Notes under the pieces: model-generated | Seen by the model: the letters and a program-made list of their open reading frames with translations, nothing else | The model's database searches: none | What the model was told of the DNA's origin: nothing | Made by a program: the position numbers and the translations under genes | Shown: positions 2,971-37,249 of the stretch, one piece after another | How the letters are laid out: every line of letters starts with the position of its first letter | Position numbering within the stretch: position 1 is the stretch's first letter | Origin: Pseudomonadota bacterium | GTDB lineage: Bacteria > Desulfobacterota > Anaeroferrophillalia > Anaeroferrophillales > Tharpellaceae | Length of the DNA stretch: 64,000 bases | Assembly: GCA_011049115.1 (NCBI GenBank) | Contig: DSCM01000133.1 | Span: 6,849 to 70,848, forward strand | Direction of reading: 5' to 3'

Positions 2971-3176
2971 TAAATCAACCAGATCCCTCGGATTCGCGCC
3001 CCTGCGGGGGGCAAACCCCGTAGCCCCGGATCGAAGATTAGGGCCCAAAGCTGAAGGCTCTCCCGAGAATCGCAGCAAAGTACTCGCACCAGATCATGGC
3101 CCGTTTTTTTTAAACCGAAAATGACTTGTGAGTCGTCAATCAACTTCTAAACCTTACAGGGACCAGAGAAAAGCTC

Positions 3177-4037: not shown

Positions 4038-4149
4038 AATCCGTCTCGACCAGCGCCCTACCATCATTCGGCCGGGCTTTGAGCCCGGATAAAACCCATC
4101 CTTTTTCAAGGGCAGGTGGACAGCGTCCGCCGCGCACCAGTGACACAGC

Positions 4150-6071: not shown

Positions 6072-6211
6072 GGCAGACCTGGCGACGATTTTTGCCCCCT
6101 GAGCGTTCAGGGCCGGCGAAATAATTTTGCCGCGCCAGAGGCAGGAACAGAAAGATCTCGCCGTCAGCGACGGGAAAACAACCACCAGGCAACCCTTTCA
6201 CGGCCGAAAAC

Positions 6212-7003
6212 TCAGCTCGAAAAGGGCTCATTTTTAATCCGGCGGCAGCGCTTGATTTCAAACAGGGCGACTGCCGCAGCCACCCCGACATTAAGTGATT
6301 CACTCTCCCGGGACAACGGAATGGAGACTTGAAAATCGCAGGCCCGGTTAATGATCGGCCGCAGACCCTTGTCCTCCGAACCCAGCACCAGAACCAGCGA
6401 GGCCGCCCAGTCGACGGCATAAAGGTCGTCGCCGCCGGAAGCGGCGGCGCCATAGATCCAGAAACCAGCCGCTCGGCATTGCTGCAGGGCGTCGGCCAGA
6501 TTAACCACGCGACAAATGGGCAGTTTTTCCAGGGCTCCGGCCGCCGTCTTGGCGGCCGCCGGGGTTATCGCGGCGCTGCGGCGCTCGGGCAGCAGCAAAC
6601 CGGCGACTCCGGCGGCGACCGCGGTCCGAATGATAGCGCCGAGATTACGCGGGTCGGTTACCCCGTCCAGCGCCAGCAACAAAGCCCCCGATGGCGCTTG
6701 CGCGCAGGTTCTGAGCAGCTCGACCAGCGGCGTGAAAACAAACGGCGCCACCTGGGCCGCGACCCCTTGATGCCTGATTCCGCTCGCGAGGCGATCCAGA
6801 GCCTTTCCCGGAACTATCTTAACGCTGATGCCCTGATCACGGGCGCGTTCCCCAAGGTCCTTCAGCCGGCGGCCTCCTGTATCCAGCAGATACAGGGTCA
6901 AAATCCGCGATGACCGAGCCAGAAGTTCAGTTACGGCATTGATGCCGCAAACTAGATCTTGACCACCATCCGCCTTCGAGATAGCTGAAGCCATGAAGAT
7001 CAA
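6212..7003 (-). CDS. rlmB: 23S rRNA (guanosine-2'-O)-methyltransferase RlmB (SpoU family with N-terminal substrate-binding domain)
   Basis: 263 aa; LLLALDGVTDPRNLGAIIRTAVAAGV...LVLGSEDKGL...IPLSRESESLNVGVAAAVALFE SpoU motifs. Confidence 0.75.
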   Translation of the reverse strand: MIFMASAISKADGGQDLVCGINAVTELLARSSRILTLYLLDTGGRRLKDLGERARDQGISVKIVPGKALDRLASGIRHQGVAAQVAPFVFTPLVELLRTCAQAPSGALLLALDGVTDPRNLGAIIRTAVAAGVAGLLLPERRSAAITPAAAKTAAGALEKLPICRVVNLADALQQCRAAGFWIYGAAASGGDDLYAVDWAASLVLVLGSEDKGLRPIINRACDFQVSIPLSRESESLNVGVAAAVALFEIKRCRRIKNEPFSS

Positions 7004-7671
7004 TGGCCAAAGATTCGAAAGTTAATAATTTTCGACCACCCCGATTCGGTTTCAACCCCGGCTTCCGGCGCCACGATACAGGCTGTGCCGGATGAGGGGG
7101 CGGCGGTCAAAACCTTTGCCGGGGTGGACGGAGTCGACGAGGCGATCGGCAAAGACATGATCATTCGCGATTGCGGGCAAGCCTGAGGACAGGGCGGGCA
7201 AAGCAGCCGGCTGGACTGAAAATTTCGCGGTGCACTCCCGGCAATTTCCTCTTCCAGTTTTTTCTGTTCGGCCCCCAGGGATTCGACCAAACCATCAACC
7301 ACAGCTCGCAAATCCTGGTTGTCATTCAGTAAATCCTGCAAATCAAGCAGGTTCCTGACCGACGCGCCGATCTTCTGCACGCGCCGCTTCAGCCCCCAAA
7401 CCACCATTTCATCCTCCAGGGCCAGCAATCTTGTACCGGTTTCCGCCTCCGCCGCCTCCAGGGAGACAATTTTACGATTAACCTCAACCAGCTGTTTGCG
7501 AAGTTTCTGATAATCAAGAAAACCCAGCCCGGAGGCTACAACCAGCAGAAGAAAAACCGCTGTCGACACAAAAAGAAAGAGACCACCTTTCTTCTTCTGC
7601 ACGCCGCCATGATTTGCGACCACGGAGGCACCACCCAATTCTTTTTCGTTTTTTTCTTCCGTCACATTCAA
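7000..7671 (-). CDS. Hypothetical membrane-anchored coiled-coil protein
   Basis: 223 aa; one N-proximal hydrophobic helix (LFLFVSTAVFLLLVVASGLGFL) followed by heptad-like LEAAEAE.../QKKLEEE region; no recognisable enzymatic motif. Confidence 0.45.
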   Translation of the reverse strand: MNVTEEKNEKELGGASVVANHGGVQKKKGGLFLFVSTAVFLLLVVASGLGFLDYQKLRKQLVEVNRKIVSLEAAEAETGTRLLALEDEMVVWGLKRRVQKIGASVRNLLDLQDLLNDNQDLRAVVDGLVESLGAEQKKLEEEIAGSAPRNFQSSRLLCPPCPQACPQSRMIMSLPIASSTPSTPAKVLTAAPSSGTACIVAPEAGVETESGWSKIINFRIFGH

Positions 7672-7955
7672 TCTCCTGGAAATCGTTTACAGTCTCAGAA
7701 CCTTCGGTTTAAATTCCGGCCTTTCGGCAAAAAAGATGGCGATGAAAGCTGAATATAACCTTTCCCGGCGGCAGGGTCAAGCTTCAGGAGGCGACCGGCT
7801 CAAGCAAAGGATATATAAATCTTTTTCTCCGATTCGTGTTTTCGTGTCGGGCGCGGGCGCTCTTTTATTTCACATCAGTTAAGGTTCTCGGTCATGTCCA
7901 TGGCGGGGACAAAAACCGGCGCCCGGGTCTGGCTTTCAACCACTTCAAGCGCCGG

Positions 7956-9348
7956 TCAGGATTCGCCACCCGGGCCTTTTTCCTCCCGCAGCAAGGCCAG
8001 AATCGTCGCGGTCCGTTCCTCCAGCAGAGCCTGATTTCCCCGGCTCTCGACATTAAGGCGCAACAAAAACTCGGTATTGGAGGAACGCAGGTTAAAACGC
8101 CAGTCGGCAAATTCCAGGGTCAGACCGTCGACGCAAAAACTGCGCAGCACCTTTTCCCGCTCCCGGAAATACTTTTCAACCCTGGCGATTGCCGCCGCGG
8201 GATCGGCCGGAGAGCAGTTGATCTCGCCGCTGACCGGATAGAGCCTGATTCTTTCATCCACCAACTCAGACAGTCGCCGCCCGCTGCGAGAAAGCAGCTC
8301 CAGGACCAGCAACCAGGGAATCATGCCCGAGTCACAATAGGAAAATTCCCTGAAATAGTGGTGGGCGCTCATCTCTCCGCCATAAAGGGCGTCAAGTTCG
8401 CGCATGCGCTCCTTGATGAAAGCATGACCGGTTCGAGAAACCACGGCCTCGCCCCGCGACTTGCCGACCAGATCAATCGTATTCCAGGTCAGACGCGGGT
8501 CGTAAATGATTTTGGCGCCGGGATGCTGCTGCAGACGAAGCTGAGCCAGCAGACCAACGAGATAATAACCCTCAAGAAAACGACCCGTCTCATCAAAGAA
8601 AAAACAGCGGTCAAAATCACCATCCCAGGCCAGACCGATATCAGCCCCCGCTCTGATCACCGCCTGACTCGTCAGGGAACGATTTTCCGGCAGCAGAGGA
8701 TTGGGAATACCCTGCGGAAAAGTTCCGTCCGGCTCATTGAGCAGCTTGATAAAGGTAAAAGGCAGACGGCGTTCAAGCAGGTCCAGGACCGGCCCGGCGC
8801 AGCCGTTACCTGCATTGACGACGACTTTCAGGGGGGCTAAGCCGGGACAGATCGATATAACTAAGCAGATGCTCAATATAGTCATCGCGAAAAGTCAGGG
8901 ACCGGCGTTGCGCCGCCCGTGCCGCCCGCGCGGGAAAGTCCCCCCCCGCAACCAGTTCTCGAAGTTGAGGCAAACCGAAATCTCCATGTAAAGGGCGAGC
9001 TTGCGCGCAAACCAGTTTCATTCCGTTATAATCAGCAGGATTATGACTGGCGGTGACCATGATACCACCGTCAAGCCGATAATGGAAAGTCGCGAAATAA
9101 ACCTCTTCGGTGCCGCAAAGACCGAGCTCCAGGACCTCGACTCCGCCCTCGCTGAGCCCCCGGGCCAGCGCCTCGGCCAGAGCCGGACTGGAAAGTCGCA
9201 CATCCCGACCAACAGCAACCCGGACCGGTTTAAAGAATGCGGCGTAAGCCCGCCCCAGACGCCAGGCCAGTTCCTCGTTAAGCTCGTCCGGAACCCGCCC
9301 GCGAATATCATAAGCCTTGAAACAGGCCGTAGAGATGGTTTCAGTCAT
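7956..9348 (-). pseudogene. manB: Phosphomannomutase/phosphoglucomutase (alpha-D-phosphohexomutase family), interrupted by a +1 frameshift at a C6 (minus-strand) / G6 (plus, 8831-8836) homopolymer
   Basis: ORF 8806..9348 carries FKAYDIRG and TASHNP active-site serine motif; ORF 7956..8885 carries [10 protein letters not shown] and C-terminal domains; the two frames rejoin to ...[18 protein letters not shown] if one C of the run is removed. Confidence 0.8.
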
Positions 9349-9351
9349 CAG

Positions 9352-10431
9352 TCAAGTTCCTTTAAGATAACTCGCGTAGGCCGCATGAATCCCTTCCTTA
9401 AGTGTAAACCGCGGCCGCCAGCCGAAACCATGCAGACGACTGGAATCCAGCAACTTGCGCGGCATGCCGTCCGGATGGGTGGCGTCAAAAACAATCCCCC
9501 CGGTATAACCGACGATTTCCCGAACAATTTCCGCCAGTTCGCGAATAGAATGCTCAACCCCACTGCCGATGTTAAGCAGTTCTCGTGCTTCATACTCGTT
9601 CATCACAAAGAGCAGGGCCGAGGCCAGATCATCAACATATAAAAATTCCCGCCGCGGCTGCCCGCTACCCCAGAGCTCGACCGCCGTCGTCTTGGCAAGC
9701 GGCGCGTTGCCGACGGCGTCCCCCTCTCGAAAAGGGAGCCTGCGCCCATGCGCCGCGGCGATGCGCCGCAGATTGGCATAGAAAGCATCGGGAATCACCC
9801 CATATCGCCTTTCATCCGCCGCCAGGGCTGCGGCATTGCCGGCCGCCGCCAACTTCGCAAGATGAAACTTACGGATCAGGGCCGGTAAAACATGGGAACT
9901 CAAAAGATCGTAATTATCGTTGGGACCATACAGATTGGTCGGCATCACGGGGACGAAATTGGTTCCGTACTGCTGGTTAAAAGAGTTGCACATCTCTATG
10001 CCGGCAATCTTGGCGACCGCATAGGCGGAATTGGTCGGTTCCAGAGGACCGTTGAGCAGATATTCCTCTCGGATCGGCTGGGCCGCCAGACGCGGATAAA
10101 TACAGGAGCTGCCCAAAAAAATCAGTTTTTTGACCTGGTTGAGCGCCGCCGCCCGCAGCACATTGGTCTGAATCATCAGATTTTCGTAGATGAAATCAGC
10201 CGACTGGGTCAGGTTGGCATAGATTCCACCCACCTTGGCCGCGGCCAGAAAAACATAATCGGGTTTTTCCCGGGCGAAAAAAGTCTCCACCGCCGGCTGC
10301 CGGGTCAGGTCGAGCTCAGTCCGGGAAGGCAGCAGAAGGTTGTCGTAGCCCTCCCGCCGCAGGCCCGCGACCAGAGCCGAGCCCACCAGACCGCGATGTC
10401 CGGCGACATAGATCTTATCGTTTTTTTGCAT
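9352..10431 (-). CDS. fcl: GDP-L-fucose synthase (GDP-4-keto-6-deoxy-D-mannose 3,5-epimerase/4-reductase)
   Basis: 359 aa; KIYVAGHRGLVGSA, YLAAAKVGGI, FLGSSCIYP, PTNLYGPNDN motifs colinear with E. coli Fcl; contains a ~45-aa Ala/Arg-rich insertion between the FHLAK and WGSG segments. Confidence 0.85.
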   Translation of the reverse strand: MQKNDKIYVAGHRGLVGSALVAGLRREGYDNLLLPSRTELDLTRQPAVETFFAREKPDYVFLAAAKVGGIYANLTQSADFIYENLMIQTNVLRAAALNQVKKLIFLGSSCIYPRLAAQPIREEYLLNGPLEPTNSAYAVAKIAGIEMCNSFNQQYGTNFVPVMPTNLYGPNDNYDLLSSHVLPALIRKFHLAKLAAAGNAAALAADERRYGVIPDAFYANLRRIAAAHGRRLPFREGDAVGNAPLAKTTAVELWGSGQPRREFLYVDDLASALLFVMNEYEARELLNIGSGVEHSIRELAEIVREIVGYTGGIVFDATHPDGMPRKLLDSSRLHGFGWRPRFTLKEGIHAAYASYLKGT

Positions 10432-10742: not shown

Positions 10743-10818
10743 TGGTGCCGGGGGACGGAATTGAACCGCCGACACGGGGATTTTCAGTCCCCTGCTCTAC
10801 CGACTGAGCTACCCCGGC
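10743..10818 (-). tRNA. tRNA-Phe (anticodon GAA)
   Basis: Reverse complement reads GCCGGGGTAGCTCAGTCGGTAGAGCAGGGGACTGAAAATCCCCGTGTCGGCGGTTCAATTCCGTCCCCCGGCACCA: canonical cloverleaf, anticodon loop CTGAAAA, encoded CCA. Confidence 0.9.
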
Positions 10819-10880: not shown

Positions 10881-11252
10881 GTGGGAGATATTTTCATGGT
10901 CAGCCGTCTTGATGCGTCCCTGAACGCCGTCCACAACCATCTTCAACGTCTGCAGACCAGCACGACCAACATTGCCAATCTCAATACCGACGGCTATCAA
11001 AGCCTGCGACTGACCATCAACGAGGGTCCGACCGGGACAACGACCACGACCCTCAGTACCGAGACCACTCCCGGCCCCTTACGCCAGGAATTAAACCAGG
11101 ATGGCGGCATGGTTGAAACCCCAGGCTCCAATGTCGACCTGGCCGGAGAATATGTCAAGATCATGACCTCGACCCAAGCCGTCAAAGCCAATCTCAAGGC
11201 CGCCGCAACCGTCAGCGAGCTTCTGGGTGAGGTTATCGACACCCTGGCCTGA
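10881..11252 (+). CDS. Small flagellar basal-body rod-like protein (FlgB/FlgC-type N- and C-terminal motifs) with Thr-rich linker; orphan
   Basis: N-terminal rod signature NIANLNTDGY and C-terminal VDLAGEYVKIMTSTQAVKAN match the Flg_bb_rod / rod C-terminal motifs; central GPTGTTTTTLSTETTPGP low-complexity segment; no other flagellar genes nearby. Confidence 0.55.
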   Translation: MGDIFMVSRLDASLNAVHNHLQRLQTSTTNIANLNTDGYQSLRLTINEGPTGTTTTTLSTETTPGPLRQELNQDGGMVETPGSNVDLAGEYVKIMTSTQAVKANLKAAATVSELLGEVIDTLA

Positions 11253-11307: not shown

Positions 11308-11343
11308 GCCCGCCTGGGTTTAAACCCGCCGGCTATTTTTTTT
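11308..11343 (+). terminator. Putative terminator after rod-like gene (12-bp palindrome GGGTTTAAACCC plus GCCGGC, then T8)
   Basis: gggtttaaaccc at 11316-11327 is a perfect palindrome, followed by gccggctattttttttg; the T-run also encodes the Lys-rich C-terminus of the convergent ehr small-subunit gene. Confidence 0.4.
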
Positions 11344-12109
11344 GCCGGCCCTTGATTCTGCCGACCAGTCGCAACAGACCGTCCAGAATCGTCAGTGGAT
11401 GCGGCGGACAGCCGGGAATATACAGATCAACCGGCAAGAGGAAACCGGCGCCGTCATTAACCTGCTCATGCCCCCGGTAAGGCCCCCCACCAATCGCGCA
11501 GGCCCCGACCACAATCACGATTTTCGGCTCCGGCACCGCCTCCCAGGTTTTTTTCAGGGCCAGTTCCATGTTTTTCGTAACGGGGCCGGTAATCAGAAGG
11601 CCGTCGGCATGCCGGGGAGAGGCCACGAACTGAATCCCAAAACGCCCCAAATCCCAACCGATCGTACATAACACGTTCACATCCGCTTCGCAGGCGTTAC
11701 AACCACCCGCACTGACCTGGCGCAGTTTCAGGGAGCGGCCGAAAAGCTTTTTCAGACGCCGATCCAGCTCGGTCGCCAACCGGATTTCCATCTGTTCAGC
11801 CGTGACCTGCAAATCCTCGCGCCGACGAACCGCGAGTCGGTAATCCTCGGAAAAAGAGATGGCTTCCCGAGGACAGGCCGTCATGCAATCGGTGCAGAAA
11901 AGACATTTGCCCATATCCAGGCTTTTGTTTTCGACGTCGATCGCTCCCACCGGACAAACCTCCGCACAAATCCGACAGCCGGCCTCACATTTATCCAGGG
12001 CAAACAATAGGCGTCCGCGAAAATGCGGCGGCAGCAGCGGAGGCTTCCCTTCCGGAAACTTGATGGTACGATAGCCCTGTTTGAAACGGGAGACGAATTC
12101 CTGATACAT
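11333..12109 (-). CDS. Ehr/group-4-hydrogenase-type small subunit (NuoB/HycG-like) fused to an N-terminal 2x[4Fe-4S] ferredoxin (HycF-like) domain
   Basis: Two CxxCxxCxxxCP motifs (CEAGCRICAEVCP, CLFCTDCMTACP) then GGCNACEAD, VASPRHADGLLITGPVT, VGACAIGGGPY, IPGCPPHP (NuoB N2-cluster cysteines retained). Confidence 0.8.
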   Translation of the reverse strand: MYQEFVSRFKQGYRTIKFPEGKPPLLPPHFRGRLLFALDKCEAGCRICAEVCPVGAIDVENKSLDMGKCLFCTDCMTACPREAISFSEDYRLAVRRREDLQVTAEQMEIRLATELDRRLKKLFGRSLKLRQVSAGGCNACEADVNVLCTIGWDLGRFGIQFVASPRHADGLLITGPVTKNMELALKKTWEAVPEPKIVIVVGACAIGGGPYRGHEQVNDGAGFLLPVDLYIPGCPPHPLTILDGLLRLVGRIKGRQKK

Positions 12110-12127
12110 GTTTATATCCTTAAACTT

Positions 12128-13660
12128 TTAAAGATCATGCCCACAATAGGAAAGATTGAAACTCTTGTTGCACAAGGGAAAATCGGAAATTTCCTGCCGC
12201 CGCAAAACCTGAGCCAGAGCAAACCAGTTGTGAAAAGATGGATCGACGATCTTGTAGCGGGCGAAACTGCCGCCCGCATCGGTGATGCCGACATGGCAAA
12301 TTTCACCCCGCCAGCCTTCGCAGAGGGCCACCGCCAGGGAATCGGCCTGCAGCGGAGCGGAAGTAACCCTCACCTTGCCGGAGGGCAAATGTTTCAACTG
12401 TTCCTCGATAAAAGCAAGGGACTGCTGAATTTCCAGCCACCGAACATAGGCCCGCCCCAGAACATCCCCTGAGTCATAAGTGGAAATCGGAATCTGCGCG
12501 AAACGATAAATCCCCGTGGGATGGTCGTAGCGCACATCCCGCGGCAGACCACAGGCGCGCGCCGCCGGCCCGACAATTCCCAGGGCGACGGCGGTCTCCC
12601 GGGCCAGACGACCGGTGTCCTCAAAACGGGCCATCACCGACTGATTCTCCCATAAAAGATTAATCGCCTCGCTCGATTCCTTTTTCAGAATGCGCAGCCG
12701 GCGCAGTAATTCCTCGATCCCACTCTGGTCGACATCAAACCCCACTCCGCCCGGTTGAATCAGCCCCCGCCCGAAACGATTGCCGCAAAGATAGGCGGTC
12801 AGGTTTAAAAACTCACCCCGAATGCGACCGCAATAACTTGCGGTCGGCAAAAAACCGACATCTCCCGACAAGGCGCCGAGATCGCCCACATGATTGGCCA
12901 GCCGCTCAAATTCCAGAGCAATGCCCCGCAGGGCCTGGGCGCGCACCGGTTTTTGTATATGGGCAAAACCTTCAAACACCTGACAATAAGCCAGGCTGTG
13001 ACCGATCGTGGTATCGCCGGCCAGGGTTTCCATAAAATGCAGGGTTCTGGCATTCGGTCCACCGGGCAGAGCTTCTTCCACCCCACGATGCTGATAGCCC
13101 AGCGCGATCTCCAGATGAAAAACCTCTTCCCCATGACATTGAAAACGAAAATGCCCCGGTTCAATAACGCCGGCATGAACCGGACCGACCGCCACCTCAT
13201 GAACCTGGTCCCCGGCAATCCGGTAAAAATCACCGACCGCCGGCAATATCGGTTCACCCGCCGGCCGCTCCCAGGCATCCCGGCCCGTCCAGGATGGGCG
13301 GTAACGCACCGGCTTAAACCAGGGATGAGACCGGGCTTTGAGGCCGAACTGCTCGGCAATTTCCCGCTCAAAGAGCTGAACCTGGTGACAGTTCGAAGCC
13401 AGGGAGGGAAAACTCGTTTCCGTCACCTCGCTACGGCCGACATAGAGATGATTATCCTCATCATCGGCCAGGACAACGTACAGAATCGTGTTTGCTTCCG
13501 ACGGCGAAGGCGCAGCGAACAGGGCGCTCACCCTTTGGCCCCGCTCAACCGCGGCGCTGATGGTCTGCATAAAATCATCAACCGCCAAACCAGGGATATC
13601 CTTCAGAGAAACAACCCCACCGTTGGCGATGGTCGCAAGTTTGGTCGACATGGGCATCAT
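12128..13660 (-). CDS. Ehr/group-4-hydrogenase-type large subunit (fused NuoC–NuoD / HycE-like) lacking canonical [NiFe]-ligating CxxC motifs
   Basis: 510 aa with NuoC-like N-terminus and NuoD/HycE-like body; no CxxC pair anywhere; C-terminus ends NLSYCGHDL rather than a DPCxxCxxR-type motif. Confidence 0.8.
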   Translation of the reverse strand: MMPMSTKLATIANGGVVSLKDIPGLAVDDFMQTISAAVERGQRVSALFAAPSPSEANTILYVVLADDEDNHLYVGRSEVTETSFPSLASNCHQVQLFEREIAEQFGLKARSHPWFKPVRYRPSWTGRDAWERPAGEPILPAVGDFYRIAGDQVHEVAVGPVHAGVIEPGHFRFQCHGEEVFHLEIALGYQHRGVEEALPGGPNARTLHFMETLAGDTTIGHSLAYCQVFEGFAHIQKPVRAQALRGIALEFERLANHVGDLGALSGDVGFLPTASYCGRIRGEFLNLTAYLCGNRFGRGLIQPGGVGFDVDQSGIEELLRRLRILKKESSEAINLLWENQSVMARFEDTGRLARETAVALGIVGPAARACGLPRDVRYDHPTGIYRFAQIPISTYDSGDVLGRAYVRWLEIQQSLAFIEEQLKHLPSGKVRVTSAPLQADSLAVALCEGWRGEICHVGITDAGGSFARYKIVDPSFHNWFALAQVLRRQEISDFPLCNKSFNLSYCGHDL

Positions 13661-15090
13661 CCTCGATTCTCCAGAAAGCTGACGGCGTTATTGAGCATGG
13701 ATTGCAGAAATTCCGGAATGTACAGGCCCAGCAGCAAGACGATTGCCATAAAAGCCAACACCGGCGCCGCCGTCAGGAAAACATCCCGGTAACCGGAGCC
13801 GATCACATCCGTGGGAACTCGACCCTGCACCACGCGTAAAACCGTGATCCCCATGCCGATAAAGACCAGGAACAGAAATACCAGGAAGAGCCCTCCGGCC
13901 CAGAAACGCCCGGTGCTGAAAGCGGCGTCAAGAATCGAGAATTCACTGATAAAGGGAGCGAAGGGAGGCGATCCGGTAATCGCCAGGAAACCGGCCAGAA
14001 ACAAAGCCCCAGATAACGGCAGACGCCGGAGAGCGCCGCACACCTGATCGGTATTCTTGCTCGCGTAAGCCCGGTGAATATTGCCGGCCGAAAGAAACAA
14101 GACCCCCTTGGTCATGGCATTATTGATCATATGCAGCAGGGTTCCGAACAGGGCCGGGCCGCCGATTCCCAGGCCCAGAACCAGGATCCCCATATGCTCG
14201 ACGCTGGAATAGGCCAGCATGCGTTTGAAATCACGCTGGCTGAGCATGAAAATACCGGCGACCGCCATGGAAAACAGGCCCATGAAAACCAGCAGTTTCG
14301 CCATAAATTGCTGTTCCCCCGCGGCAAGACCGATCTGATAGATCCGCAGCAAAGCGAGAAAGGCGCCGCTGGTAATCCCGCCGGCAAAGATACAACCGAC
14401 CACGCCGGAAGCTTCACCATAGGCATCGGGTTTCCAGGTGTGCATGGGAGCCAGCCCCATCTTCGTCCCATAACCAACCAGAATCAGGATGAACGCGGCT
14501 CGCAACCAGGGTTTCGCCAAGCCCGGTCCGTTCTCAAGCAGCTCGGTAAAACCCAGAGTCGCTTCCATTCCTCCCTGCAGGGAGGAATAGGCCAGGAAAA
14601 AGGTTCCCAACAGGGCCAGCGCGATACCCACGGATCCGACCAGCAGATATTTCCAGGTGGCTTCGATACTGCGCGGGGTATGATTGAAATAGATCAGGGG
14701 AGCCGTAACCAGGGTGGTGCCCTCGATCGCCACCCATAAGAGTCCGAGATGGTGAGCCCAGGCAACCAGGGTTATCAGCCCGAGAAAAGCCAGCAGACAA
14801 GCAACAAAGATGCGATTGGGCCGTTCCTGTCTGAATTTAAGATAGCCCACCGTGTAAAAAGACGAGAACAGATACAGCAGGGTTATGGTCAGCAGAATGA
14901 TCGCTCCGACCGGATCCAGCACGAGCCAGGGCGTCCGGCTTCCCCACTGAGGGAAAATAAGCACCAAAACAGTACCGGCGGTATGCGCCAAGGCCGTCAC
15001 CGGCATGAGCCAGGGACGCCAGTAATTACTGGTCACCACCATGGCCAAAGCGGCCATGGCCAGAGGTAACAGAATCAGGGCCAGGGCCAT
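13657..15090 (-). CDS. NuoN/NuoM/HyfF-like proton-pumping antiporter subunit
   Basis: Polytopic membrane protein with GTKMGLAPMHTWKPDAYGEA (NuoN/M signature around conserved Lys/Glu); start trimmed to MALALILL to give 4-nt overlap with upstream gene. Confidence 0.7.
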   Translation of the reverse strand: MALALILLPLAMAALAMVVTSNYWRPWLMPVTALAHTAGTVLVLIFPQWGSRTPWLVLDPVGAIILLTITLLYLFSSFYTVGYLKFRQERPNRIFVACLLAFLGLITLVAWAHHLGLLWVAIEGTTLVTAPLIYFNHTPRSIEATWKYLLVGSVGIALALLGTFFLAYSSLQGGMEATLGFTELLENGPGLAKPWLRAAFILILVGYGTKMGLAPMHTWKPDAYGEASGVVGCIFAGGITSGAFLALLRIYQIGLAAGEQQFMAKLLVFMGLFSMAVAGIFMLSQRDFKRMLAYSSVEHMGILVLGLGIGGPALFGTLLHMINNAMTKGVLFLSAGNIHRAYASKNTDQVCGALRRLPLSGALFLAGFLAITGSPPFAPFISEFSILDAAFSTGRFWAGGLFLVFLFLVFIGMGITVLRVVQGRVPTDVIGSGYRDVFLTAAPVLAFMAIVLLLGLYIPEFLQSMLNNAVSFLENRG

Positions 15091-15094
15091 GAAA

Positions 15095-15736
15095 TTACTC
15101 CTTAAGAGAAGAAAGATGGCGCGTATCCAAAGAGGAAAACGTGCGATTGATTTGGTTGGTAATGATTGAAACAATGAAAATACTGACAAAAAGGTCGAGC
15201 AGCATCCCCATTTCCACGACCAGTGGAATCGCCTCCATCAGCAGCAGGCTGAACATATAGATGCCGTTTTCCAGCACCAGATAACCCAGCACCTGAGTCA
15301 ATGATTTCAGCCTGGTCGTCAACAGAATAAACCCCACCAGGACGACCGTGATCGCGGTTGGAATAATAAGCGACTCAGACTGTCCCGGCACCTGCCCGCG
15401 CCCGCAGATCAGAAATACCGCCGCCGTCACCAGGGCGCCGATGATCGTCGACGGCAGCAAACCGATAATGGGTTCAACTTCCCGTTTGATCTGCACATCG
15501 CGCAGAGCTTTGATCATAATTGCGGGAATAACGATCCCCTTCAGGGAAATGGCCGCCAGTGAAGCCAGAATTGTGGCAAAGGAGAGATGCGAATGGATGA
15601 ACAGAGGTAAAAACCCCATCAGCACCCCCTGTAAAGCCACGATGCGAATCACCGAAATGATGCTCGCGTTGCCGAGGGCAAAAAGATTAAGCGCCAGAAT
15701 GAGCATGAAAATCGCATTCATTAACTGATCCATCAA
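15095..15736 (-). CDS. HyfE-like small hydrophobic subunit of complex I / hydrogenase-4 type
   Basis: 213 aa, ~6 predicted TM helices; position and size match HyfE in hyf/ehr-type operons. Confidence 0.55.
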   Translation of the reverse strand: MMDQLMNAIFMLILALNLFALGNASIISVIRIVALQGVLMGFLPLFIHSHLSFATILASLAAISLKGIVIPAIMIKALRDVQIKREVEPIIGLLPSTIIGALVTAAVFLICGRGQVPGQSESLIIPTAITVVLVGFILLTTRLKSLTQVLGYLVLENGIYMFSLLLMEAIPLVVEMGMLLDLFVSIFIVSIITNQINRTFSSLDTRHLSSLKE

Positions 15737-15737
15737 A

Positions 15738-16649
15738 TCACCTCAACAAAACCACAAAGGCCGAACCGCATAAAAGAACGGAGACGATCAATAAGGACGG
15801 CACTCTCGACATCCGCAGGCGGGCCATGATCGATTCGATAACCCCGACCGAAACCGCAAGCCCAAGCAAACCGGTGATAAAGATCAGCCAGTCCAGCCAG
15901 ATTTTTCCGGAAGCTGCCGGCAGCACGAGATTAAGAAAAACGGAACCGAGAACCATGAACTTTAACGACGAGGCATATTCAATCAGGCCCAGCAGAGGCC
16001 CACTGTGATCAAGCACCATAACTTCATGGATCATGGTCAATTCAAGATGGGTATTGGGGTCATCCACCGGAATACGGCTGTTCTCGGCCAGGAAGACAAT
16101 ATAAAAACCCAGGGCGATCATGACGATTGAAGCCGCACTGCCCCGATGAAAAAGAGAAACCTCTGGATCGTGCAGCATGCCGGCAAGAGAAAGTGAGCCG
16201 GAAAGTTTGGCCAGCACCAAAAAAGCAAAAAACATCGCGGGCTCGGTCAGGACCGCGAACGTCACCTCACGGGAAGCCCCCATACCTTCAAAGGCTGAAC
16301 CGGTATCCAGGGCGGCGGCGGTCGTAAAAAACCGGGCCAGGCCGAAAAGGTAGGCAAACAGGAGAAAATCCCCGGTAAAGGAGACCAGGGCCGGAGAACT
16401 GCCGAGCGGAATCAGGACGGCGGCGGCCAGCACCGCGATCAGCGTGATAATCGGGCCGGCCTGAAAAACCCAGGTGGTGGTTCCGCTCAGAACCAAACCC
16501 TTACGCATAAGCTTGAAAAGATCATAGTAAAACTGAAAAAAAGGAGCGCCTTTACGTCCGGCCAAAAAAGCTTTAGTTTTATTGACCACTCCCAGTAAAA
16601 TTGGCGGTAAAACCAACAAGAGAAACAGATGCACCGGCAGATTGATCAT
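15738..16649 (-). CDS. NuoH/HycD/HyfC-like membrane subunit
   Basis: 303 aa polytopic protein; position and size typical of the NuoH homolog in group-4-type clusters. Confidence 0.7.
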   Translation of the reverse strand: MINLPVHLFLLLVLPPILLGVVNKTKAFLAGRKGAPFFQFYYDLFKLMRKGLVLSGTTTWVFQAGPIITLIAVLAAAVLIPLGSSPALVSFTGDFLLFAYLFGLARFFTTAAALDTGSAFEGMGASREVTFAVLTEPAMFFAFLVLAKLSGSLSLAGMLHDPEVSLFHRGSAASIVMIALGFYIVFLAENSRIPVDDPNTHLELTMIHEVMVLDHSGPLLGLIEYASSLKFMVLGSVFLNLVLPAASGKIWLDWLIFITGLLGLAVSVGVIESIMARLRMSRVPSLLIVSVLLCGSAFVVLLR

Positions 16650-18644
16650 AAACCACCTCCCACGCCGCCGAAGATAAAGAGGCCCAAAGTCATCAACAGG
16701 ACGTAGAGAACATAGATATGCGTCCAGCCATGCTGAAGGATGTAGATCTTGGGCACAACTCGACTTGCCATTTTAAATGCCGGCAAAACCAGTCTGTCCA
16801 AGACGGTGTCCGGCATGACTTCCTGAAATTCAGTTTTTTGCGGAAAAGGTGAAAAGGTCAGCGCGGGAAAACGAATCATGGGCCATAAGACAAAACCGAA
16901 AAGTTTGCTAAGCGGCTGGGTAAACGAAGTCCCCGTGTACTGCATTTTTGCCGCAGGTTGCGAATAACCACAATCCCAGGTCGGCCCCGAGCCCACTATT
17001 TTTTTCTTCCGCGCGCGCAGATACCAGGCCCCCGCCACAAGCAAAGCGATCAAACTTATACCGTTACAAGAGGCCAGTCCTGAAGGTGAGGCCAAAAGGG
17101 CAAGCTTCTGGGCCGGATCGAGCAGGGGCATCCAGCAACGCACGGCTTTCTCAAACAAAGGCGACACCGCCATCGGCAGCAGGCCGATGAAAAAACAACC
17201 GCCCGCCAATAAAAACATAGGCGCCAGCATGCTGATTTCGGGATCATGCGCCGCCGCGGAAGCCGACGAGCGTGGAACGCCCAGGAAAATGGCGCCATAG
17301 AGTTTGACAAAGGTGACGACCGCCGCCAGAGCGCCGATCGTGGCCAGGGCCACGGCACCGGCACCCGCCAGGGCCAAACTCGCTTCCGGCGTTTTCGTCG
17401 CGAGGGTTTTAAACAAACCCAGATAAATAAACCATTCGCCGACAAAACCGTTAAGCGGCGGCAAGGCGCAGATGGCCAGTGCCCCAACCAGAAAAAGAGC
17501 CGCGCTCACCGGCATTTTTTTAGCGCCCCCCATTTGTTCGAGATCGCGAGTGTGCCCGGCATGAATAATCGCCCCGGCATTGAAAAAGAGCAGGGCCTTG
17601 AACAATCCATGATTCCAGACATGGAGCAGGGCACCACTCATTCCCAGGAGCACCAGTCCCGGGCGGGCACAGGTCCGGCCCAGCAGGGCAGCCCCACCCC
17701 CATGGTTATAATACCGACGTTTTCAATGCTGCTGTAAGCCAGCGCCCTTTTCAGATCACGTTGACTTAAAGCGAAAACAATGGCGAATAAACCACTCAGC
17801 CCCCCGGTAACCAGCAACAGGATACCCCACCAGGAAGCGCCACAGGAAAACAGACTGGAGATTCGCAGCAGGCCGTAAATACCCATTTTCAGCATTACTC
17901 CGGACATCAGGGCCGACACATGACTGGGGGCGTTGGCATGGGCTTCCGGCAGCCAAACATGCAAGGGCATGAGACCGGCCTTACAGGCGAAACCCAGAAG
18001 CACCAGAACAAAAATCAAGCCCGCGCCGAACAACGGCACCGTCGCCGGGGCCACCAGCAGGGAAAATGAACCCGTGGCCTGGTGCCAGAGAGAAAACATG
18101 GCGATCAGTAACAAGGTGCCGACATGAGTGGCGACCAGATAAATCCGCCGGCCTGCCGAACCTCGAGAAGATCATCCTCAATCGTGGCGGCAAAATAGGC
18201 CGAAACGGCCATAACCTCCCAGACCAGCAGAAAAAGAACGCCATCCCGGGCAATCACGACCAAAGCCATGCTCCCGGCCAGCAAGCCGTAGAAGATCCCC
18301 AGTTTCTTTCCATTTTCCGGATGCTCAAGCTGTTTCCAGTAGCTCAGGCTATAGACTGAACCAAGTGCGGCAATCGTGAAAATCAAGCTCAGGAAGAAAG
18401 CGCTGAGCGCAGCGACGGCCACGGTAAAGCTTCCCCAGGGCAAACACCAGGGCAAGGACAGGACCGAAACCTCGGTACCGCACCAAGACCATCCCGTACT
18501 CAGGATGCCCAACAGGCTTCCGGTCAGCAGCAGACTCACTGTCAAACGCTGCCCCGCCGTCGGTCCGAGCGGCAACAGACTCGCCGGTAAACCGCTGAAA
18601 AGCAACAACCCCAGACCCCAAAACACCAACCCAAGCCCTTCCAT
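16646..18644 (-). pseudogene. HyfB/NuoL/MrpA-like antiporter subunit paralog, split in three ORFs by two -1 frameshifts
   Basis: ORFs 18105..18644, 17638..18114 and 16646..17653 align colinearly to N-terminal, middle (GLMPLHVWLPEAHANAPSHVSALMSGVMLKMGIYGL) and C-terminal parts of the intact downstream paralog; junction 1 near 18150-18160, junction 2 in a run at 17691-17705 (plus strand gccccaccccc, i.e. minus-strand G5-T-G4 atgggggtggggctg). Confidence 0.7.
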
Positions 18645-18812
18645 CTTTTTTTAAACCTCTCAACAAAATCTACAGAATTAACCAACCCCATGCAGGCCGG
18701 CTGACATTTTTTCTTTTGCTTACCCCAGGCGTCTGATGACCGTAAACCAAACGCAGAAAACCGGACACATTCGCGTCCGGCATAAAGAAAGCACCTATCT
18801 GATTCTTCGCTC

Positions 18813-20825
18813 TTAAAGCAGGCCGGCGAAGATCTCGGCAAAAGGAAGCAGGGTCGTCAGCATGAGTAAAACGGCCACGACGACATACAGAACATAGAGA
18901 CGCGTCTGTCCCTGCTGGAAACGATAAAACCAGCGCAGCTGCCTTTTGAGCCGACAGAAACCCGGAATCAGCGCCCGATCCAGAACCAGCTCGGCGACAT
19001 GGCTATGCAGACGGCTTCTCTCCGGCATTACGCCTCTGATTTCAGGCCCCCTGACTTCAGGTTTGAGAACCCAGACGAACAAGCCCAGTAAAGTCCGGGC
19101 AAACGATGAGGCCGTGTATTGCATCCTGGCCGTCGGCGCGGCGTAACCACAATCCCAGGTGACCACTTTGCGCCGCGACCACGGCTTGCGACAACGGCGA
19201 AAGCAAAGAACCGGAAGTAAAACCAGGCTCAGCAGAAGAAACGCCGACCAACTGATGGCGGAAAAGGGAATCAAGCCCGCCAGGGTCGGACTGTAGGTCG
19301 ACAACGAAACCGGCAACCAGGCGGCGATAGCCTGCTCAAGCACCGGAACCATCAGCCCCGGCGCCAGGCCCAGAACCAGACATAATCCGGCCAGAACCAG
19401 CATGGAAGCAAGCATGACGCCGGGCGCTTCAGGGGCCGACGCCGCCGCCGGACTGCGCGGCGTCCCCAGAAAAACCGCGCCATAGACCTTGACGAAACAA
19501 GCTATGGCCAAGGCCCCGATCATGGCCAGAACCGGAGCTGCGACCCCCACCATCAAACCAGAATTTCCCGGAACCATAAAGGTTTTAAAAACCCCCAGAT
19601 AAACAAAAAACTCACTGACAAAACCATTCAAAGGCGGCAGACCGCAGATAGCCACGGCCCCGATCAGAAAGAGAACCGCCGTCCAGGGCAGGCGTTGCGC
19701 AAGCCCCCCCAGCTGATCGATGCGGCGGGTATGAGTCGCGTGAACAATCGCTCCTGACCCCAGAAACAGCAACGATTTAAAAAGACTGTGGTTCCAGATG
19801 TGCAACAGACAGCCGGCCATTCCCAGCATAATCCATTCCGGCCGGCCATAGCTGCGGCCGAGCATGGCCAGTCCCAGACCCAGCAAGATAATGCCGATAT
19901 TTTCAACGCTGTGATACGCCAGCAGGCGCTTCAGGTCATGCTGAGCCAAGGCAAAGATAACCCCCAATAAACCGCTCAGGGCTCCGGCCGCCAGAATGAA
20001 CCAACCCCATAAGGCCGGAGGATCAGGCAGCAGGGAAAGGATGCGAATCAAGCCGTAAAGCCCGATTTTCAGCATGACTCCGGACAAGACCGCCGACACA
20101 TGACTGGGCGCGTTCGCGTGCGCACCGGGCAACCAGAAATGCAGCGGCATGATTCCAGCTTTCAGACCAAAACCGACAAAAGCCAGAAAAAACAGGATAT
20201 GGCTCTGCAACCTCGAGACGCTCCCGAGCGCCGGGGAAAAAAAAGCAAATGATCCAGTCAGATGTCGCCAGAAAATAAACAAGCCGAAAAGCACCAGGGT
20301 CCCGAAATGAGTGGCCAGCAGATAAACCAGGCCGCTCTTTCGACATTCTTCAAGCTCGTCTTCCGTCGTAACCAGAAAAAAGGCCGAAAGCGCCATCACC
20401 TCCCAGCCCAGCAGAAAAGCCAGAGCATGCGTACTGACCACCAACAAGGCCATCCCCGCCAGCAAAGTGCCCCAGAAGCAACGCAACCCGGAAGCGTTGT
20501 GTTGGTTTTTCTGCTGCGGCCAATACCCCAGACCAAAGACCGCTCCCAGAAAACCCATCACAAAAATCGGCACCAGGAAAAAGGCGCTCAGAGCGTCAAG
20601 CCCCAGACAGGAACCGCCGGCGGGCGGCCATGGGAAAGCGTGAGCGGTCGAAAAAGCCGACAGGAAAAAAACCCGACCGCTGCCGATCAAACCGGACAAG
20701 GCTCCAAGTCCCAGCAGGAAAACCGCGCTCCGCTCCCCCCAGACCGAAGTCCGCGGCAGAAAAAGCCCGGGCACCCCACTACCGGCCACCAGAATCAGGG
20801 CCAGATTCAGCAAAAAAAAATTCAC
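18813..20825 (-). CDS. HyfB/NuoL/MrpA-like antiporter subunit (intact)
   Basis: 670 aa; IMPLHFWLPGAHANAPSHVSAVLSGVMLKIGLYGLIRI signature of NuoL/MrpA family; first gene of the ehr-like operon. Confidence 0.75.
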   Translation of the reverse strand: MNFFLLNLALILVAGSGVPGLFLPRTSVWGERSAVFLLGLGALSGLIGSGRVFFLSAFSTAHAFPWPPAGGSCLGLDALSAFFLVPIFVMGFLGAVFGLGYWPQQKNQHNASGLRCFWGTLLAGMALLVVSTHALAFLLGWEVMALSAFFLVTTEDELEECRKSGLVYLLATHFGTLVLFGLFIFWRHLTGSFAFFSPALGSVSRLQSHILFFLAFVGFGLKAGIMPLHFWLPGAHANAPSHVSAVLSGVMLKIGLYGLIRILSLLPDPPALWGWFILAAGALSGLLGVIFALAQHDLKRLLAYHSVENIGIILLGLGLAMLGRSYGRPEWIMLGMAGCLLHIWNHSLFKSLLFLGSGAIVHATHTRRIDQLGGLAQRLPWTAVLFLIGAVAICGLPPLNGFVSEFFVYLGVFKTFMVPGNSGLMVGVAAPVLAMIGALAIACFVKVYGAVFLGTPRSPAAASAPEAPGVMLASMLVLAGLCLVLGLAPGLMVPVLEQAIAAWLPVSLSTYSPTLAGLIPFSAISWSAFLLLSLVLLPVLCFRRCRKPWSRRKVVTWDCGYAAPTARMQYTASSFARTLLGLFVWVLKPEVRGPEIRGVMPERSRLHSHVAELVLDRALIPGFCRLKRQLRWFYRFQQGQTRLYVLYVVVAVLLMLTTLLPFAEIFAGLL

Positions 20826-20848: not shown

Positions 20849-21538
20849 TCAATTTCGCGCTGGAATTTCACCTTCAATCAGAGTCAGCAGGGCCAGCAGC
20901 TCTTGTTGCGATGCTTTTTCATGTAAGGCATCCTGCAGACGTTGATTGTGTAAAACATAACTGATTCTTGACAATAAATGCAAATGAACTCGCGTCGTCG
21001 TACTGATCAGGGTAAACAGGACGTTTACGGGCTTTCCATCCAGAGCCTGGAAATCTATGGGTTTTTCTAAAAAACAAAGGGTTACCGAAGGCTTTGCGAC
21101 GTTCAAGACCACGGGATTGCGCACATGGGGGATGGCGACTCCCCCCCCGAAACCGGTTGAACCCAGACTTTCCCGCGCCAGAAGCACTTGATAAAGGAAC
21201 TCACGGTCGACCGTTTCGGGCAAATTTAGGAGGGCGACCATCGACCGCAGCACCGACGCCGAATCGTTGCCGGGCAGTTGATAGATTACGCCTCCGTGAC
21301 TAATCGCCTCCACCAAAGAGGGCAGAACCGTCGAACCGTTGCGTCCTTTCTCCAGAAAGCTATCCGGCGCCAACTTCATATGCCGGGCGTTGGCCCATTC
21401 CAGAATCTCGCTGCGCACAAAACGATATTGCTCGTTGATTTTGCGAGATGGAATGATTGACTTTTTAATCCACCGATGAATCGTGTCCTCGGAGACGTTA
21501 AGCAGTTGCGCGATGTCCTGAACCGACAAATTCATCAA
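20849..21538 (-). CDS. Transcriptional regulator: N-terminal excisionase/MerR-like HTH fused to PTS EIIA(Ntr)-type (PtsN-like) domain
   Basis: N-terminal LSVQDIAQLLNVSEDTIHRWIKKSIIPS (HTH_17-like), C-terminal GGGVAIPHVRN... (GIAIPH-type EIIA-2 phosphorylation-site motif); 23 nt upstream of ehr operon, same strand. Confidence 0.65.
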   Translation of the reverse strand: MMNLSVQDIAQLLNVSEDTIHRWIKKSIIPSRKINEQYRFVRSEILEWANARHMKLAPDSFLEKGRNGSTVLPSLVEAISHGGVIYQLPGNDSASVLRSMVALLNLPETVDREFLYQVLLARESLGSTGFGGGVAIPHVRNPVVLNVAKPSVTLCFLEKPIDFQALDGKPVNVLFTLISTTTRVHLHLLSRISYVLHNQRLQDALHEKASQQELLALLTLIEGEIPARN

Positions 21539-21603: not shown

Positions 21604-22815
21604 TTACTTCGGGGAACGGATATCAAAACGGGGAGCGGCCAGCATTCTGCCGATCTGCTCTTTCAAATCCGTCTGATCCGGGTTTTCACTAGCCTGTTCC
21701 TGCAACAGGTTAAACAAACGACTCTGCTCCAGCGGATGAGCATAGGCTTCCGGAGTGCCGTCCTTCAGTTGAATATGGGCGGCCCAGGGAACAAAATAGG
21801 TGGTTGCCGGAAACCCCTGATACTCGGAGATGTCTACGTTGAGACCCGCCACATAAAGCAGATTTTTATCGGCATACTCATTCCCCCGACGAATGGACTC
21901 CACCGTCCGGGCAAACTCAAGCTGGATATTGATCTTGGCCGCTCTCAACGCCGGGTTGGGAGCGGTGACGATCGTGGGCATGAACTCGATCAGAGATCTT
22001 TCCAGCAGGATAGACTCATCGGTTTCATGGAAAGCTTCCTGAAAAAAGAAAAGGTCATCATACAGATATTCACCGATCGCTTCCCCCTCTCCCCCCTTCC
22101 ACACATAACCTGCGATCTCAAGACGCCGGCGAAAGGATTCGGAAACCTCGTAAGTCTGGCTCGTGGAAAGGGCCGCTATCGGATTGATCCGACCGGCCGC
22201 GTCAATTCTGGCGATGTTCTCCAACCGCAGGACCAGGCCGCTTTTCACCGGATGCAAGGGGAAATCGACAAATGAATTCTTAACGGTTATCAGGTGCCGC
22301 CCCGCATCTTCCCGCCGGAGAAAGATGCGATTTCGGGCAAAATGATATTGTTCGAGATAGGGCGTGATCACATGCGTGATCTTGCCGCAGGAGTTGGAGC
22401 TGCACGAACCTTTCATTTTGGGGCGCACCCATTTTCCGTAAGCACCGGTATGCGGGTCATAGCCCACATGGCTGGCCTGCACGATCAATGAATCCTCGCC
22501 ATGATGGGCATGCGGACCATGGCGGTCAATCGCGACGATGCCGCCCACCCGGCCATGATTAAAAGGAAAGGTGCCGAAATGCTTGGTCAACAGAATAATC
22601 GGCCAGCCCTGATTTTCATCGGAGCAAAAGGCCCGGGAAGGCATGATGTAACCTTTCCTGAACCCCAGGGTCATGCAGAGGTTATAAAGCTTGGGAACGA
22701 ATTCGGCATAGGGAATAGCCAGACCATCCACCGCGAAAGGCGCCAAGGTTCTAACAATATATGGTTTCTGATAAAAATTCGGCATTGATTGAACCTCCGG
22801 TAAGCTAAACCGCAA
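21604..22815 (-). CDS. Conserved hypothetical Cys/His-rich protein
   Basis: 403 aa; segments FCSDENQGW, HGPHAHHGED, GSCSSNSCGKITH suggest metal binding; no confident family assignment from sequence alone. Confidence 0.5.
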   Translation of the reverse strand: MRFSLPEVQSMPNFYQKPYIVRTLAPFAVDGLAIPYAEFVPKLYNLCMTLGFRKGYIMPSRAFCSDENQGWPIILLTKHFGTFPFNHGRVGGIVAIDRHGPHAHHGEDSLIVQASHVGYDPHTGAYGKWVRPKMKGSCSSNSCGKITHVITPYLEQYHFARNRIFLRREDAGRHLITVKNSFVDFPLHPVKSGLVLRLENIARIDAAGRINPIAALSTSQTYEVSESFRRRLEIAGYVWKGGEGEAIGEYLYDDLFFFQEAFHETDESILLERSLIEFMPTIVTAPNPALRAAKINIQLEFARTVESIRRGNEYADKNLLYVAGLNVDISEYQGFPATTYFVPWAAHIQLKDGTPEAYAHPLEQSRLFNLLQEQASENPDQTDLKEQIGRMLAAPRFDIRSPK

Positions 22816-25117: not shown

Positions 25118-25167
25118 TTAAAGAGCGTGAAGAATCTTTAAACAAAAGATTCTTCACGCTCTTTAAA
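25118..25167. terminator. Bidirectional terminator hairpin between convergent 3-hydroxyacyl-CoA dehydrogenase and PfkB-like genes
   Basis: ~20-bp perfect inverted repeat ttaaagagcgtgaagaatcttt / aaagattcttcacgctctttaa with short loop. Confidence 0.6.
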
Positions 25168-33377: not shown

Positions 33378-33412
33378 GACCGGCCAGAAGCCCGGAGCCC
33401 CATTAACCGACG

Positions 33413-37218: not shown

Positions 37219-37249
37219 CACCCACTGAAAAACCAGGTATGGAGACAAA

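Follow-up and report, generated by a model that had tools for sequence, protein, structure and literature searches.

A 64,000-nucleotide stretch of contig DSCM01000133.1 (assembly GCA_011049115.1, positions 6,849 to 70,848), from a bacterium of the Tharpellaceae (Desulfobacterota) and referred to here as the window, carries on its minus strand, at 11333-20825, an operon of the energy-converting hydrogenase-related (Ehr) type. Its large subunit, EhrL, lacks the four cysteines that hold the [NiFe] centre in group 4 hydrogenases. The former metal site is not degraded, because a strictly conserved alternative motif has taken its place. The cluster probably encodes a self-contained membrane complex in which low-potential electrons would be transferred through three Fe-S clusters to a non-NiFe pocket, with ion translocation coupled to the transfer. 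Hundreds of species in at least eight phyla have Ehr clusters, Geobacter and Nitrospira being examples, and no activity has ever been assigned to them.

The loss of the metal ligands is evident throughout EhrL, which contains ten cysteines and not a single CxxC pair. In the alignment with Escherichia coli HycE (7z0s_E, E=5.5e-41), the L1 motif RVCGICGFAH is replaced by TLAGDTTIGH and the L2 motif DPCYSCTDR by NLSYCGHDL; the NiFe cysteines C241, C244, C531 and C534 of HycE correspond to A214, T217, S504 and G507. Neither the L1 (RxCGxCxxxH) nor the L2 (DPCxxCxx(H/R)) motif of group 4 [NiFe] hydrogenases is present, and the C-terminus of EhrL coincides with the position of the mature HycE C-terminus. 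The missing cysteines are not a translation artefact, because the open reading frame (ORF) is continuous, aligns end to end with HycE and gives an identical 507-residue product on a separately assembled Logan contig (L001, run SRR7787262). This contig is 99.995% identical to the window over 21.5 kb and possibly derives from the same reads, so that it represents an independent assembly, not independent data. Both cysteine pairs are also absent from all 120 closest homologs. By its sequence, EhrL is predicted to be incapable of binding NiFe in the canonical way, and canonical H2 chemistry is excluded for it. A preliminary description of this DNA, made from the letters alone, had proposed both the loss of the motifs and the inability to bind NiFe; the HycE alignment and the homologs bear it out, and no cysteine pair hidden by mis-translation came to light.

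The same condition prevails in the family. When 1.84 billion cluster representatives were searched exhaustively with HMMER, 894 matched at E<=1e-30, and the best 150 were inspected. Among these, about 105 are full-length, and all four NiFe cysteines are kept in only three. These three relatives are 34-35% identical to EhrL and carry the motifs ERxCGxCxxSH ... NLCYSCTDR, while every closer sequence lacks the cysteines. Clustering of EhrL with ligand-retaining enzymes, which the preliminary description had named as an outcome that would speak against it, is therefore not seen within the best 150. Of the 120 closest homologs, 103 have an identical tail, CNKSFNLSYCGHDL, and about 150 columns are invariant in 48 sequences. 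Universal or nearly so in the wider ligand-less clade are Glu167 and His170 of an EPGHFR loop, Gly215-Asp216-(S/T)-(S/T), His221, Asp267 and Ser504-Tyr505-x-Gly507. Glu167 occupies the proton-relay position of hydrogenases. The AlphaFold2 model of EhrL (predicted local distance difference test, pLDDT, 78.5; predicted template modelling score, pTM, 0.85) has HycE as its nearest structure, with a template modelling (TM) score of 0.83 and 28% identity. No solved Ehr structure was found by sequence and structure searches of a copy of the PDB.

Three further cysteines of EhrL have a narrower distribution. Among the representatives compared (P0121-P0270), Cys175, Cys497 and Cys506 co-occur only in one Ehr sub-clade of 45 representatives, which includes the EhrL query. 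In other ligand-less clades they are jointly missing, and FRFSVA ... PLINKSFNLSYSG is found there instead. Their joint presence or absence hints at a shared role.

The small subunit, EhrS, has kept its cofactor ligands. Its best matches in the PDB are MbhJ (3.9e-32), closely followed by HycG (1.2e-29), and MbhN (4.1e-16). In the alignments with MbhJ and HycG, the proximal-cluster cysteines of these proteins coincide with C137, C140, C204 and C234 of EhrS, whose first motif is a CxxC of the hydrogenase type. The N-terminal domain of EhrS, with eight cysteines, aligns with MbhN, NdhI, NuoI and HycF. The four N2-type cysteines and the fused 2x[4Fe-4S] ferredoxin domain reported earlier are thus both recovered. 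The 12 Fe-S cysteines are conserved at 92-100% in 48 sequences, with 96-98% for C137, C140, C204 and C234, and these ligands indicate that the predicted three-cluster electron wire is intact in EhrS. The fusion had been regarded as a noteworthy architecture. It is instead a family trait, not peculiar to the window locus, and was found as a single alignment in 46 of the 48 loci with a small-subunit match.

Genes were assigned by Pfam and NCBIfam profile searches of the window ORFs (Table 1), which together with the ORF listing show a compact run of co-directional ORFs. The preliminary description had counted seven co-directional genes. The minus-strand ORFs do match hydrogenase-4 subunits B, F and E, NuoH/HycD, NuoCD/HycE and NuoB, but the second NuoL/HyfB gene (hyfB2) consists of three ORFs. 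All of the cluster apart from hyfB2 is intact, namely six structural genes and the gene of the regulator. Genes for NuoA/J/K and NuoEFG were not detected in or adjoining the operon by ORF and profile searches, nor were Mrp-type small subunits detected among the operon genes with Pfam and NCBIfam profiles. In the membrane arm, HyfB copy 1 keeps the Glu of transmembrane helix 5 and the Lys residues of helices 7 and 12, and the key Lys and Glu residues of HyfF are likewise kept. Copy 1 is orthologous to the copy adjacent to the regulator gene in two of the closest relatives (L004, L005) and to the sole copy in a further locus (L006). The HyfF ORF is open up to a TTG at 15189, but its start is probably the ATG giving 477 residues (13657-15090), which is also the length of the gene call on the Logan contig. 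The best solved relatives of HyfC are HycD (7z0s_D, 1.7e-25) and MbhM (7e-21), against about 1e-5 for ND1 of complex I. A conserved loop of HycD, PFDLAEAEQEL, reads PVDDPNTHLEL in the window HyfC (residues ~190-210; PVDDPNTHLELTMIHE) and is highly conserved across Ehr loci.

The broken copy, hyfB2, lies in three frames as ORFs of 179 residues (18105-18644), 158 residues (17638-18114) and 335 residues (16646-17653), which correspond, in that order, to 5-166, 179-321 and 335-662 in the hydrogenase-4 B profile. The reading frame runs 0 -> 2 -> 1, owing to two 1-nucleotide deletions at about 18146/18147 and 17688/17689. A conserved Trp codon has lost its T, and CTG-GCC one G. Restoring one base at each site gives a 666-residue protein that is 45% identical to copy 1. 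It aligns with intact orthologs of 663-672 residues at 99% coverage, without gaps at either junction and with a best identity of 63%. Homopolymer read errors in G-runs were considered as the cause and dropped, as the ortholog alignment places neither frameshift in a long homopolymer. The same breaks are present in the Logan contig, and hyfB2 is to be read as a pseudogene as sequenced. In the rest of the window the long genes, with products of up to 1216 residues, are intact, which argues against a generally error-ridden sequence. The divergence of hyfB2 from its orthologs is no faster than that of hyfB1; relaxed selection is thus undetectable, and the inactivation, if real, would be recent. 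With the loss of hyfB2 the locus converges on a one-HyfB composition, since most family loci have a single HyfB. Next to the operon, a phosphomannomutase/phosphoglucomutase gene at 7956-9348 (minus strand) is also split, with domain I at 8806-9348 and domains II-IV at 7956-8885. The gene is split by a +1 frameshift that falls within a C6 run (8831-8836), and the same split was called on the Logan contig.

The assignment of the operon to the Ehr family, already made in the preliminary description, is confirmed by orthologs. EhrL is 59% identical to its ortholog in Geobacter argillaceus, 57% to that in Pelobacter and 56% to that in Geomonas limicola, all with the same gene order, and the window operon therefore belongs to the Ehr complex family. 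The complex was named in Geobacter (Coppi 2005, as cited in PMC7894505 and PMC13194489). In Geobacter sulfurreducens, its subunits (GSU0739-0745) are EhrA-1, EhrA-2, B, C (HyfE-like), D, L and S (PMC7894505, PMC4667449, PMC13194489). The window operon matches this published list, and orthology to the Geobacter type cluster is indicated indirectly, via the G. argillaceus, Geomonas limicola and Pelobacter loci. A ligand-less group 4/NuoD-like large subunit, the four proximal-cluster cysteines and the NuoL/M/N-like, NuoH-like and HyfE-like subunits are all encoded in one operon. From its sequence, the window locus is a genuine and typical Ehr cluster and no new kind of system.

More than 8000 relatives of EhrL are present in the databases, with 55-79% identity across phyla, and carriers were found in at least 598 species genomes when one genome per species was scanned. 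The top 120 relatives, at 64-79% identity, come from Spirochaetota, Latescibacteria, Planctomycetota, Verrucomicrobiota-related groups, Deltaproteobacteria and others. In a comparison of 80 related loci, HTH-EIIA, HyfB, HyfC, HyfE, HyfF, EhrL, EhrS emerged as the canonical order. Most loci have one HyfB, and a second is found in the closest relatives (L004, L005, L019) as well as in Geobacter and Pelobacter. The duplicated antiporter subunit, which had been singled out as noteworthy, thus recurs in other lineages, and one of the two copies is frameshifted here. When the unassigned ORFs of the 80 loci were clustered, no conserved partner gene adjoining the Ehr clusters emerged, only antisense artefacts and generic GGDEF proteins. 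The lack of any other gene conserved beside the cluster fits donors and acceptors of the pool type, and it gives no support to an obligatory adjacent formate dehydrogenase.

Compared with Geobacter Ehr, the window cluster has the same subunit set and order, a ligand-less EhrL, a ferredoxin-fused small subunit, two NuoL-like genes and a gene for a helix-turn-helix (HTH)-EIIA protein (PMC7894505, PMC4667449). Two differences are evident. All genes of the window cluster are co-directional, whereas Geobacter-type loci have one HyfB copy and the HTH-EIIA gene in divergent orientation, and the HyfC-proximal HyfB copy is frameshifted in the window.

The first gene of the cluster encodes this HTH-EIIA protein, which the preliminary description had overlooked. 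Translation probably starts at the ATG at 21535, giving 228 residues. Of the 52 related loci with enough flanking sequence, 43, from many phyla, have a homolog of this gene immediately upstream of the cluster. Homologs on the same contigs as EhrL matches are 58-69% identical across phyla, and the gene is thus as conserved as the structural subunits. The phospho-acceptor His138, in an AIPH motif, is invariant in 31 aligned sequences. These features suggest that expression or activity of the cluster is probably tied to the nitrogen-related phosphotransferase system (PTS(Ntr)) phosphorelay through the HTH-EIIA protein. No literature linking PTS-EIIA regulators to Ehr or Hyf-like operons was found. 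Scans for promoters, terminators and sigma54 sites around the operon gave nothing above shuffled expectation.

Among structurally solved systems, the E. coli formate hydrogenlyase (FHL) and hydrogenase-4 (Hyc/Hyf; PDB 7Z0S) provide the best relatives of both EhrL and HyfC. They share with the window operon the Hyf-type membrane subunits B, C, E and F and a small subunit with the hydrogenase-type CxxC. In contrast to them, EhrL has neither the four NiFe cysteines nor the L1 Arg, the equivalents of HycF and HycG are fused into one protein, and the operon is devoid of genes for HycB/HyfA, formate dehydrogenase, HyfD and maturation proteases. The membrane-bound hydrogenase (MBH) and MBS/Mbx complexes of Pyrococcus furiosus (PDB 6CFW, 6U8Y) have a similarly minimal peripheral arm, composed of an MbhN-like ferredoxin-entry domain, MbhJ and MbhL. 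They differ in their Mrp-type multi-subunit sodium module, which the window operon lacks, and in the motifs that replace the active site. The match of EhrL to MbsL (6u8y_L, 5.5e-21) is weaker than that to HycE or MbhL and places EhrL outside MBS/Mbx. MBS provides a precedent for a group 4 relative that lost NiFe and gained another redox chemistry. With complex I/NDH-1 (NuoB, C, D, H, I, L, N), the homologous fold and the module plan are shared, including a NuoC-NuoD fusion as in E. coli NuoCD. The window operon, however, has no genes for NuoEFG or NuoA/J/K and no quinone-binding Tyr and His, and EhrS has a CxxC rather than the tandem-Cys motif, which is the complex I small-subunit type.

A more distant ligand-less relative with a genetic phenotype, also overlooked in the preliminary description, is Hyq of Azorhizobium caulinodans and other rhizobia (PMC2650096, PMC3357923). 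Its genes have the same order of regulator-B-C-E-F-G-I (hyqRBCEFGI), and HyqG is a ligand-less NuoCD-like protein with a GD(S/T)T motif and the C-terminal PLCNKSFNxSYxGHDL (PMC3357923). A Rhizobium plasmid ortholog of HyqG (L082) is 33% identical to EhrL and matches it in a fold-level alignment; the GD(S/T)T motif and the tail DFPLCNKSFNCSYSGHDL are common to both. HyqI (177 residues) has no 2x[4Fe-4S] domain; HyqR is a 104-residue HTH protein without similarity to the HTH-EIIA protein, and the hyq operon is controlled by NifA/sigma54 (PMC2650096). Genetic links to H2 exist for Hyq, and nothing comparable is known for Ehr. On sequence grounds, Hyq is a sister variant, not a member of the same family as the window cluster. 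Two Ehr/Hyf-like clusters also occur side by side on some replicons: on plasmid 3 of Variovorax sp. PBL-E5 (L083) at 2932-10216 and 13628-17455, in L056 from 13257 onward, and in L055. A gene for a universal stress protein, on the opposite strand, follows the Variovorax (L083) and the Rhizobium (L082) cluster.

The most likely route of electrons through the Ehr complex is as follows. A soluble low-potential donor, most likely ferredoxin, would deliver them at the exposed NuoI/MbhN-like 2x[4Fe-4S] domain of EhrS; MbhN is the ferredoxin entry point in MBH (6CFW). From there the proximal [4Fe-4S] cluster in the NuoB-like domain would carry them on to the remodelled HycE-like pocket, in which an invariant G-D-T/S-T/S...H motif and an S-Y-C-G-H-D-L C-terminus stand in for the four NiFe cysteines. 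Turnover in this pocket would be coupled to ion translocation via the HyfC/HyfE/HyfF/HyfB membrane arm, and the reverse run might be driven by an ion gradient. As predicted from the ligand loss, the acceptor is not H2/H+ at a canonical NiFe centre. Several points weigh against this mechanism. Donor, direction, coupling and regulation have been deduced, the donor and acceptor by analogy with MBH and FHL only. In the AlphaFold2 monomer model of EhrL, the invariant loops 158-170 and 494-510 are of low confidence. With hyfB2 broken and the neighbouring phosphomannomutase gene frameshifted, some genome decay is possible. The function of Ehr is given as unknown in papers to 2025-2026 (PMC12342949, PMC10284858), and one paper regards Geobacter Ehr as non-functional (PMC13194489). 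Ehr subunits are nevertheless expressed in G. sulfurreducens and are more abundant on formate (PMC7894505).

In another explanation, a minimal complex-I/NDH-1-like pump might act as a ferredoxin:menaquinone oxidoreductase, reducing the membrane quinone at the EhrL/EhrS/EhrB interface. The architecture does parallel the ferredoxin-dependent NDH-1/Fpo-type complexes, which have no NuoEFG, most host phyla probably make menaquinone, and Asp267 of EhrL aligns with Nqo4 Asp139. The authors of the Hyq studies also inferred a quinone site (PMC3357923). However, the Nqo4 quinone ligands Tyr87 and His38 correspond to Gly215 and Ile166 in EhrL. EhrL is much nearer to HycE/MbhL than to NuoD (5.5e-41 vs 1.3e-29) and HyfC much nearer to HycD/MbhM than to ND1 (1.7e-25 vs 1e-5), and HycE/HycD and MbhL/MbhM have no quinone site. 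Ehr is furthermore present in Riflemargulisbacteria, where a quinone biosynthesis pathway was not found (PMC6349859). The missing ligands, the HycD-like anchor and this occurrence together disfavour a quinone acceptor, which seems doubtful though conceivable. Alternatively, the ligand-less EhrL could be a non-canonical hydrogenase that, like the Hyq 'endo-hydrogenase', turns over H2 at a different site and couples it to ferredoxin or quinone. Conserved Cys175/Cys497/Cys506, Asp216 and His221/His508 would be the candidate residues. While fixing N2, A. caulinodans mutants deleted for hyqRBCEFGI release 10-15x more H2, and under microaerobiosis they release less; HyqG lacks both CxxC pairs (PMC3357923, PMC2650096). 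The likeness of the Rhizobium HyqG to EhrL, the invariant proton-relay Glu in the EPGHFR loop and the co-occurring cysteine triad of the query's sub-clade point in the same direction. This triad is missing from many Ehr-like clades, though, and Hyq is a distant relative with no ferredoxin domain and an unrelated regulator. The Hyq evidence is indirect, consisting of whole-cell gas measurements made at a time when a cell-free assay could not be had (PMC3357923), and altered electron flow to nitrogenase could account for it. In Nitrospira, H2 reportedly does not induce the Ehr genes (PMC12342949), and Hyb is the sole respiratory uptake hydrogenase that G. sulfurreducens needs for growth on H2 (PMC7894505). 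A hydrogenase of this kind is consequently unlikely.

The view that Ehr is an evolutionary relic, a decaying hydrogenase without active site and without function, agrees with the treatment of Geobacter Ehr in PMC13194489 and with the frameshifts in one HyfB paralog and in the nearby phosphomannomutase gene. The strong family-wide constraint argues against it. Identities of 55-79% across phyla, invariant replacement motifs at the former active site, the retention of every Fe-S ligand and antiporter residue, the intact state of the six other structural genes and the regulator, and the expression of the proteins in Geobacter (PMC7894505) are hardly compatible with decay, and a single HyfB suffices in most family members. 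A relic is very improbable. A bona fide [NiFe] group 4 hydrogenase whose cysteines were lost by a translation or frame artefact can practically be dismissed: no break interrupts the large-subunit ORF, which can be aligned over its whole length with HycE and with 120 homologs lacking the cysteines and recurs as an exact 507-residue copy in the other assembly. Frame problems near the operon are limited to hyfB2 and the phosphomannomutase gene and lend this explanation no support. A more far-reaching idea, speculative and improbable at present, is that Ehr and Hyq carry a new non-NiFe catalytic site beside the proximal Fe-S cluster. Its chemistry would be without precedent in this fold and might be the H2 turnover to which the Hyq genetics point, and across many phyla a dedicated PTS(Ntr)-phosphorylated HTH-EIIA protein would switch the complexes. 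Such a site may comprise Asp216, Thr217/218, His221, Glu167, Tyr505 and His508, together with Cys175/Cys497/Cys506 in the query sub-clade.

Three handles for experiments emerge from the comparisons: the conserved replacement pocket motif, the HTH-EIIA(Ntr) protein with an invariant phospho-His that travels with the operon, and the C-terminal signature of Hyq. By sharing this signature with Ehr, Hyq, with its genetic H2 phenotype, joins two literatures that are usually kept apart. The window locus alone is no more testable than Geobacter Ehr; the class as a whole is widespread and enigmatic. A function for Ehr would supply a missing piece in models both of how energy is conserved under anaerobic and microaerobic conditions and of the route that led from hydrogenases to complex I.

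Table 1. Genes of the Ehr-type cluster and the adjacent tRNA gene, with positions in the window and supporting profile matches.
Feature	Position	Strand	Support
HTH_17 (excisionase/MerR-like) + PTS EIIA(Ntr)-type regulator	20849..21538	-	Pfam HTH_17 2.5e-13, PTS_EIIA_2 2e-24; NCBIfam PtsN-like
HyfB/NuoL-like antiporter subunit copy 1 (EhrA-type), 670 aa, intact	18813..20825	-	NCBIfam hydrogenase 4 subunit B 1.5e-172, full length
HyfB/NuoL-like copy 2, three ORFs, pseudogene as sequenced	16646..18644	-	hydrogenase-4 B profile
HyfC/HycD/NuoH-like membrane anchor (EhrB-type), 303 aa	15738..16649	-	Pfam NADHdh 1.6e-30
HyfE-like small membrane subunit (EhrC-type), ~212 aa	15095..15736	-	NCBIfam hydrogenase 4 membrane subunit 1.6e-19, full length
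HyfF/NuoN(M)-like antiporter subunit (EhrD-type), likely 477 aa	13657..15090	-	NCBIfam hydrogenase 4 subunit F 9e-91
EhrL: fused NuoC + HycE/NuoD-like large subunit without [NiFe] ligands	12128..13660	-	Pfam Complex1_49kDa 9.5e-40
EhrS: N-terminal NuoI/MbhN/HycF-like 2x[4Fe-4S] domain + NuoB/MbhJ/HycG-like small subunit	11333..12109	-	Pfam Oxidored_q6 7.7e-25, Fer4 families
tRNA-Phe (GAA), just downstream of the operon	10743-10818	-	Rfam

The tRNA-Phe gene is the sole Rfam match around the operon. Between it and the operon lies a lone ORF of 123 residues (10881-11252, plus strand) with a Flg_bbr_C motif (flagellar basal-body rod C-terminal, 1e-5). Immediately upstream of the HTH-EIIA gene, an ORF of 403 residues (21604-22815, minus strand) has no Pfam match and is not found beside Ehr clusters in other loci. 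A 573-residue ORF further on (25163-26884, minus strand) likewise has no Pfam match. At 33081-39309 (plus strand) there is an apparent signalling cluster, recognized by eye only, with ORFs of 98 and 1092 residues followed by two of 372 and 279 residues, whose N-termini look, again by eye, like those of response-regulator and methyltransferase-like proteins.

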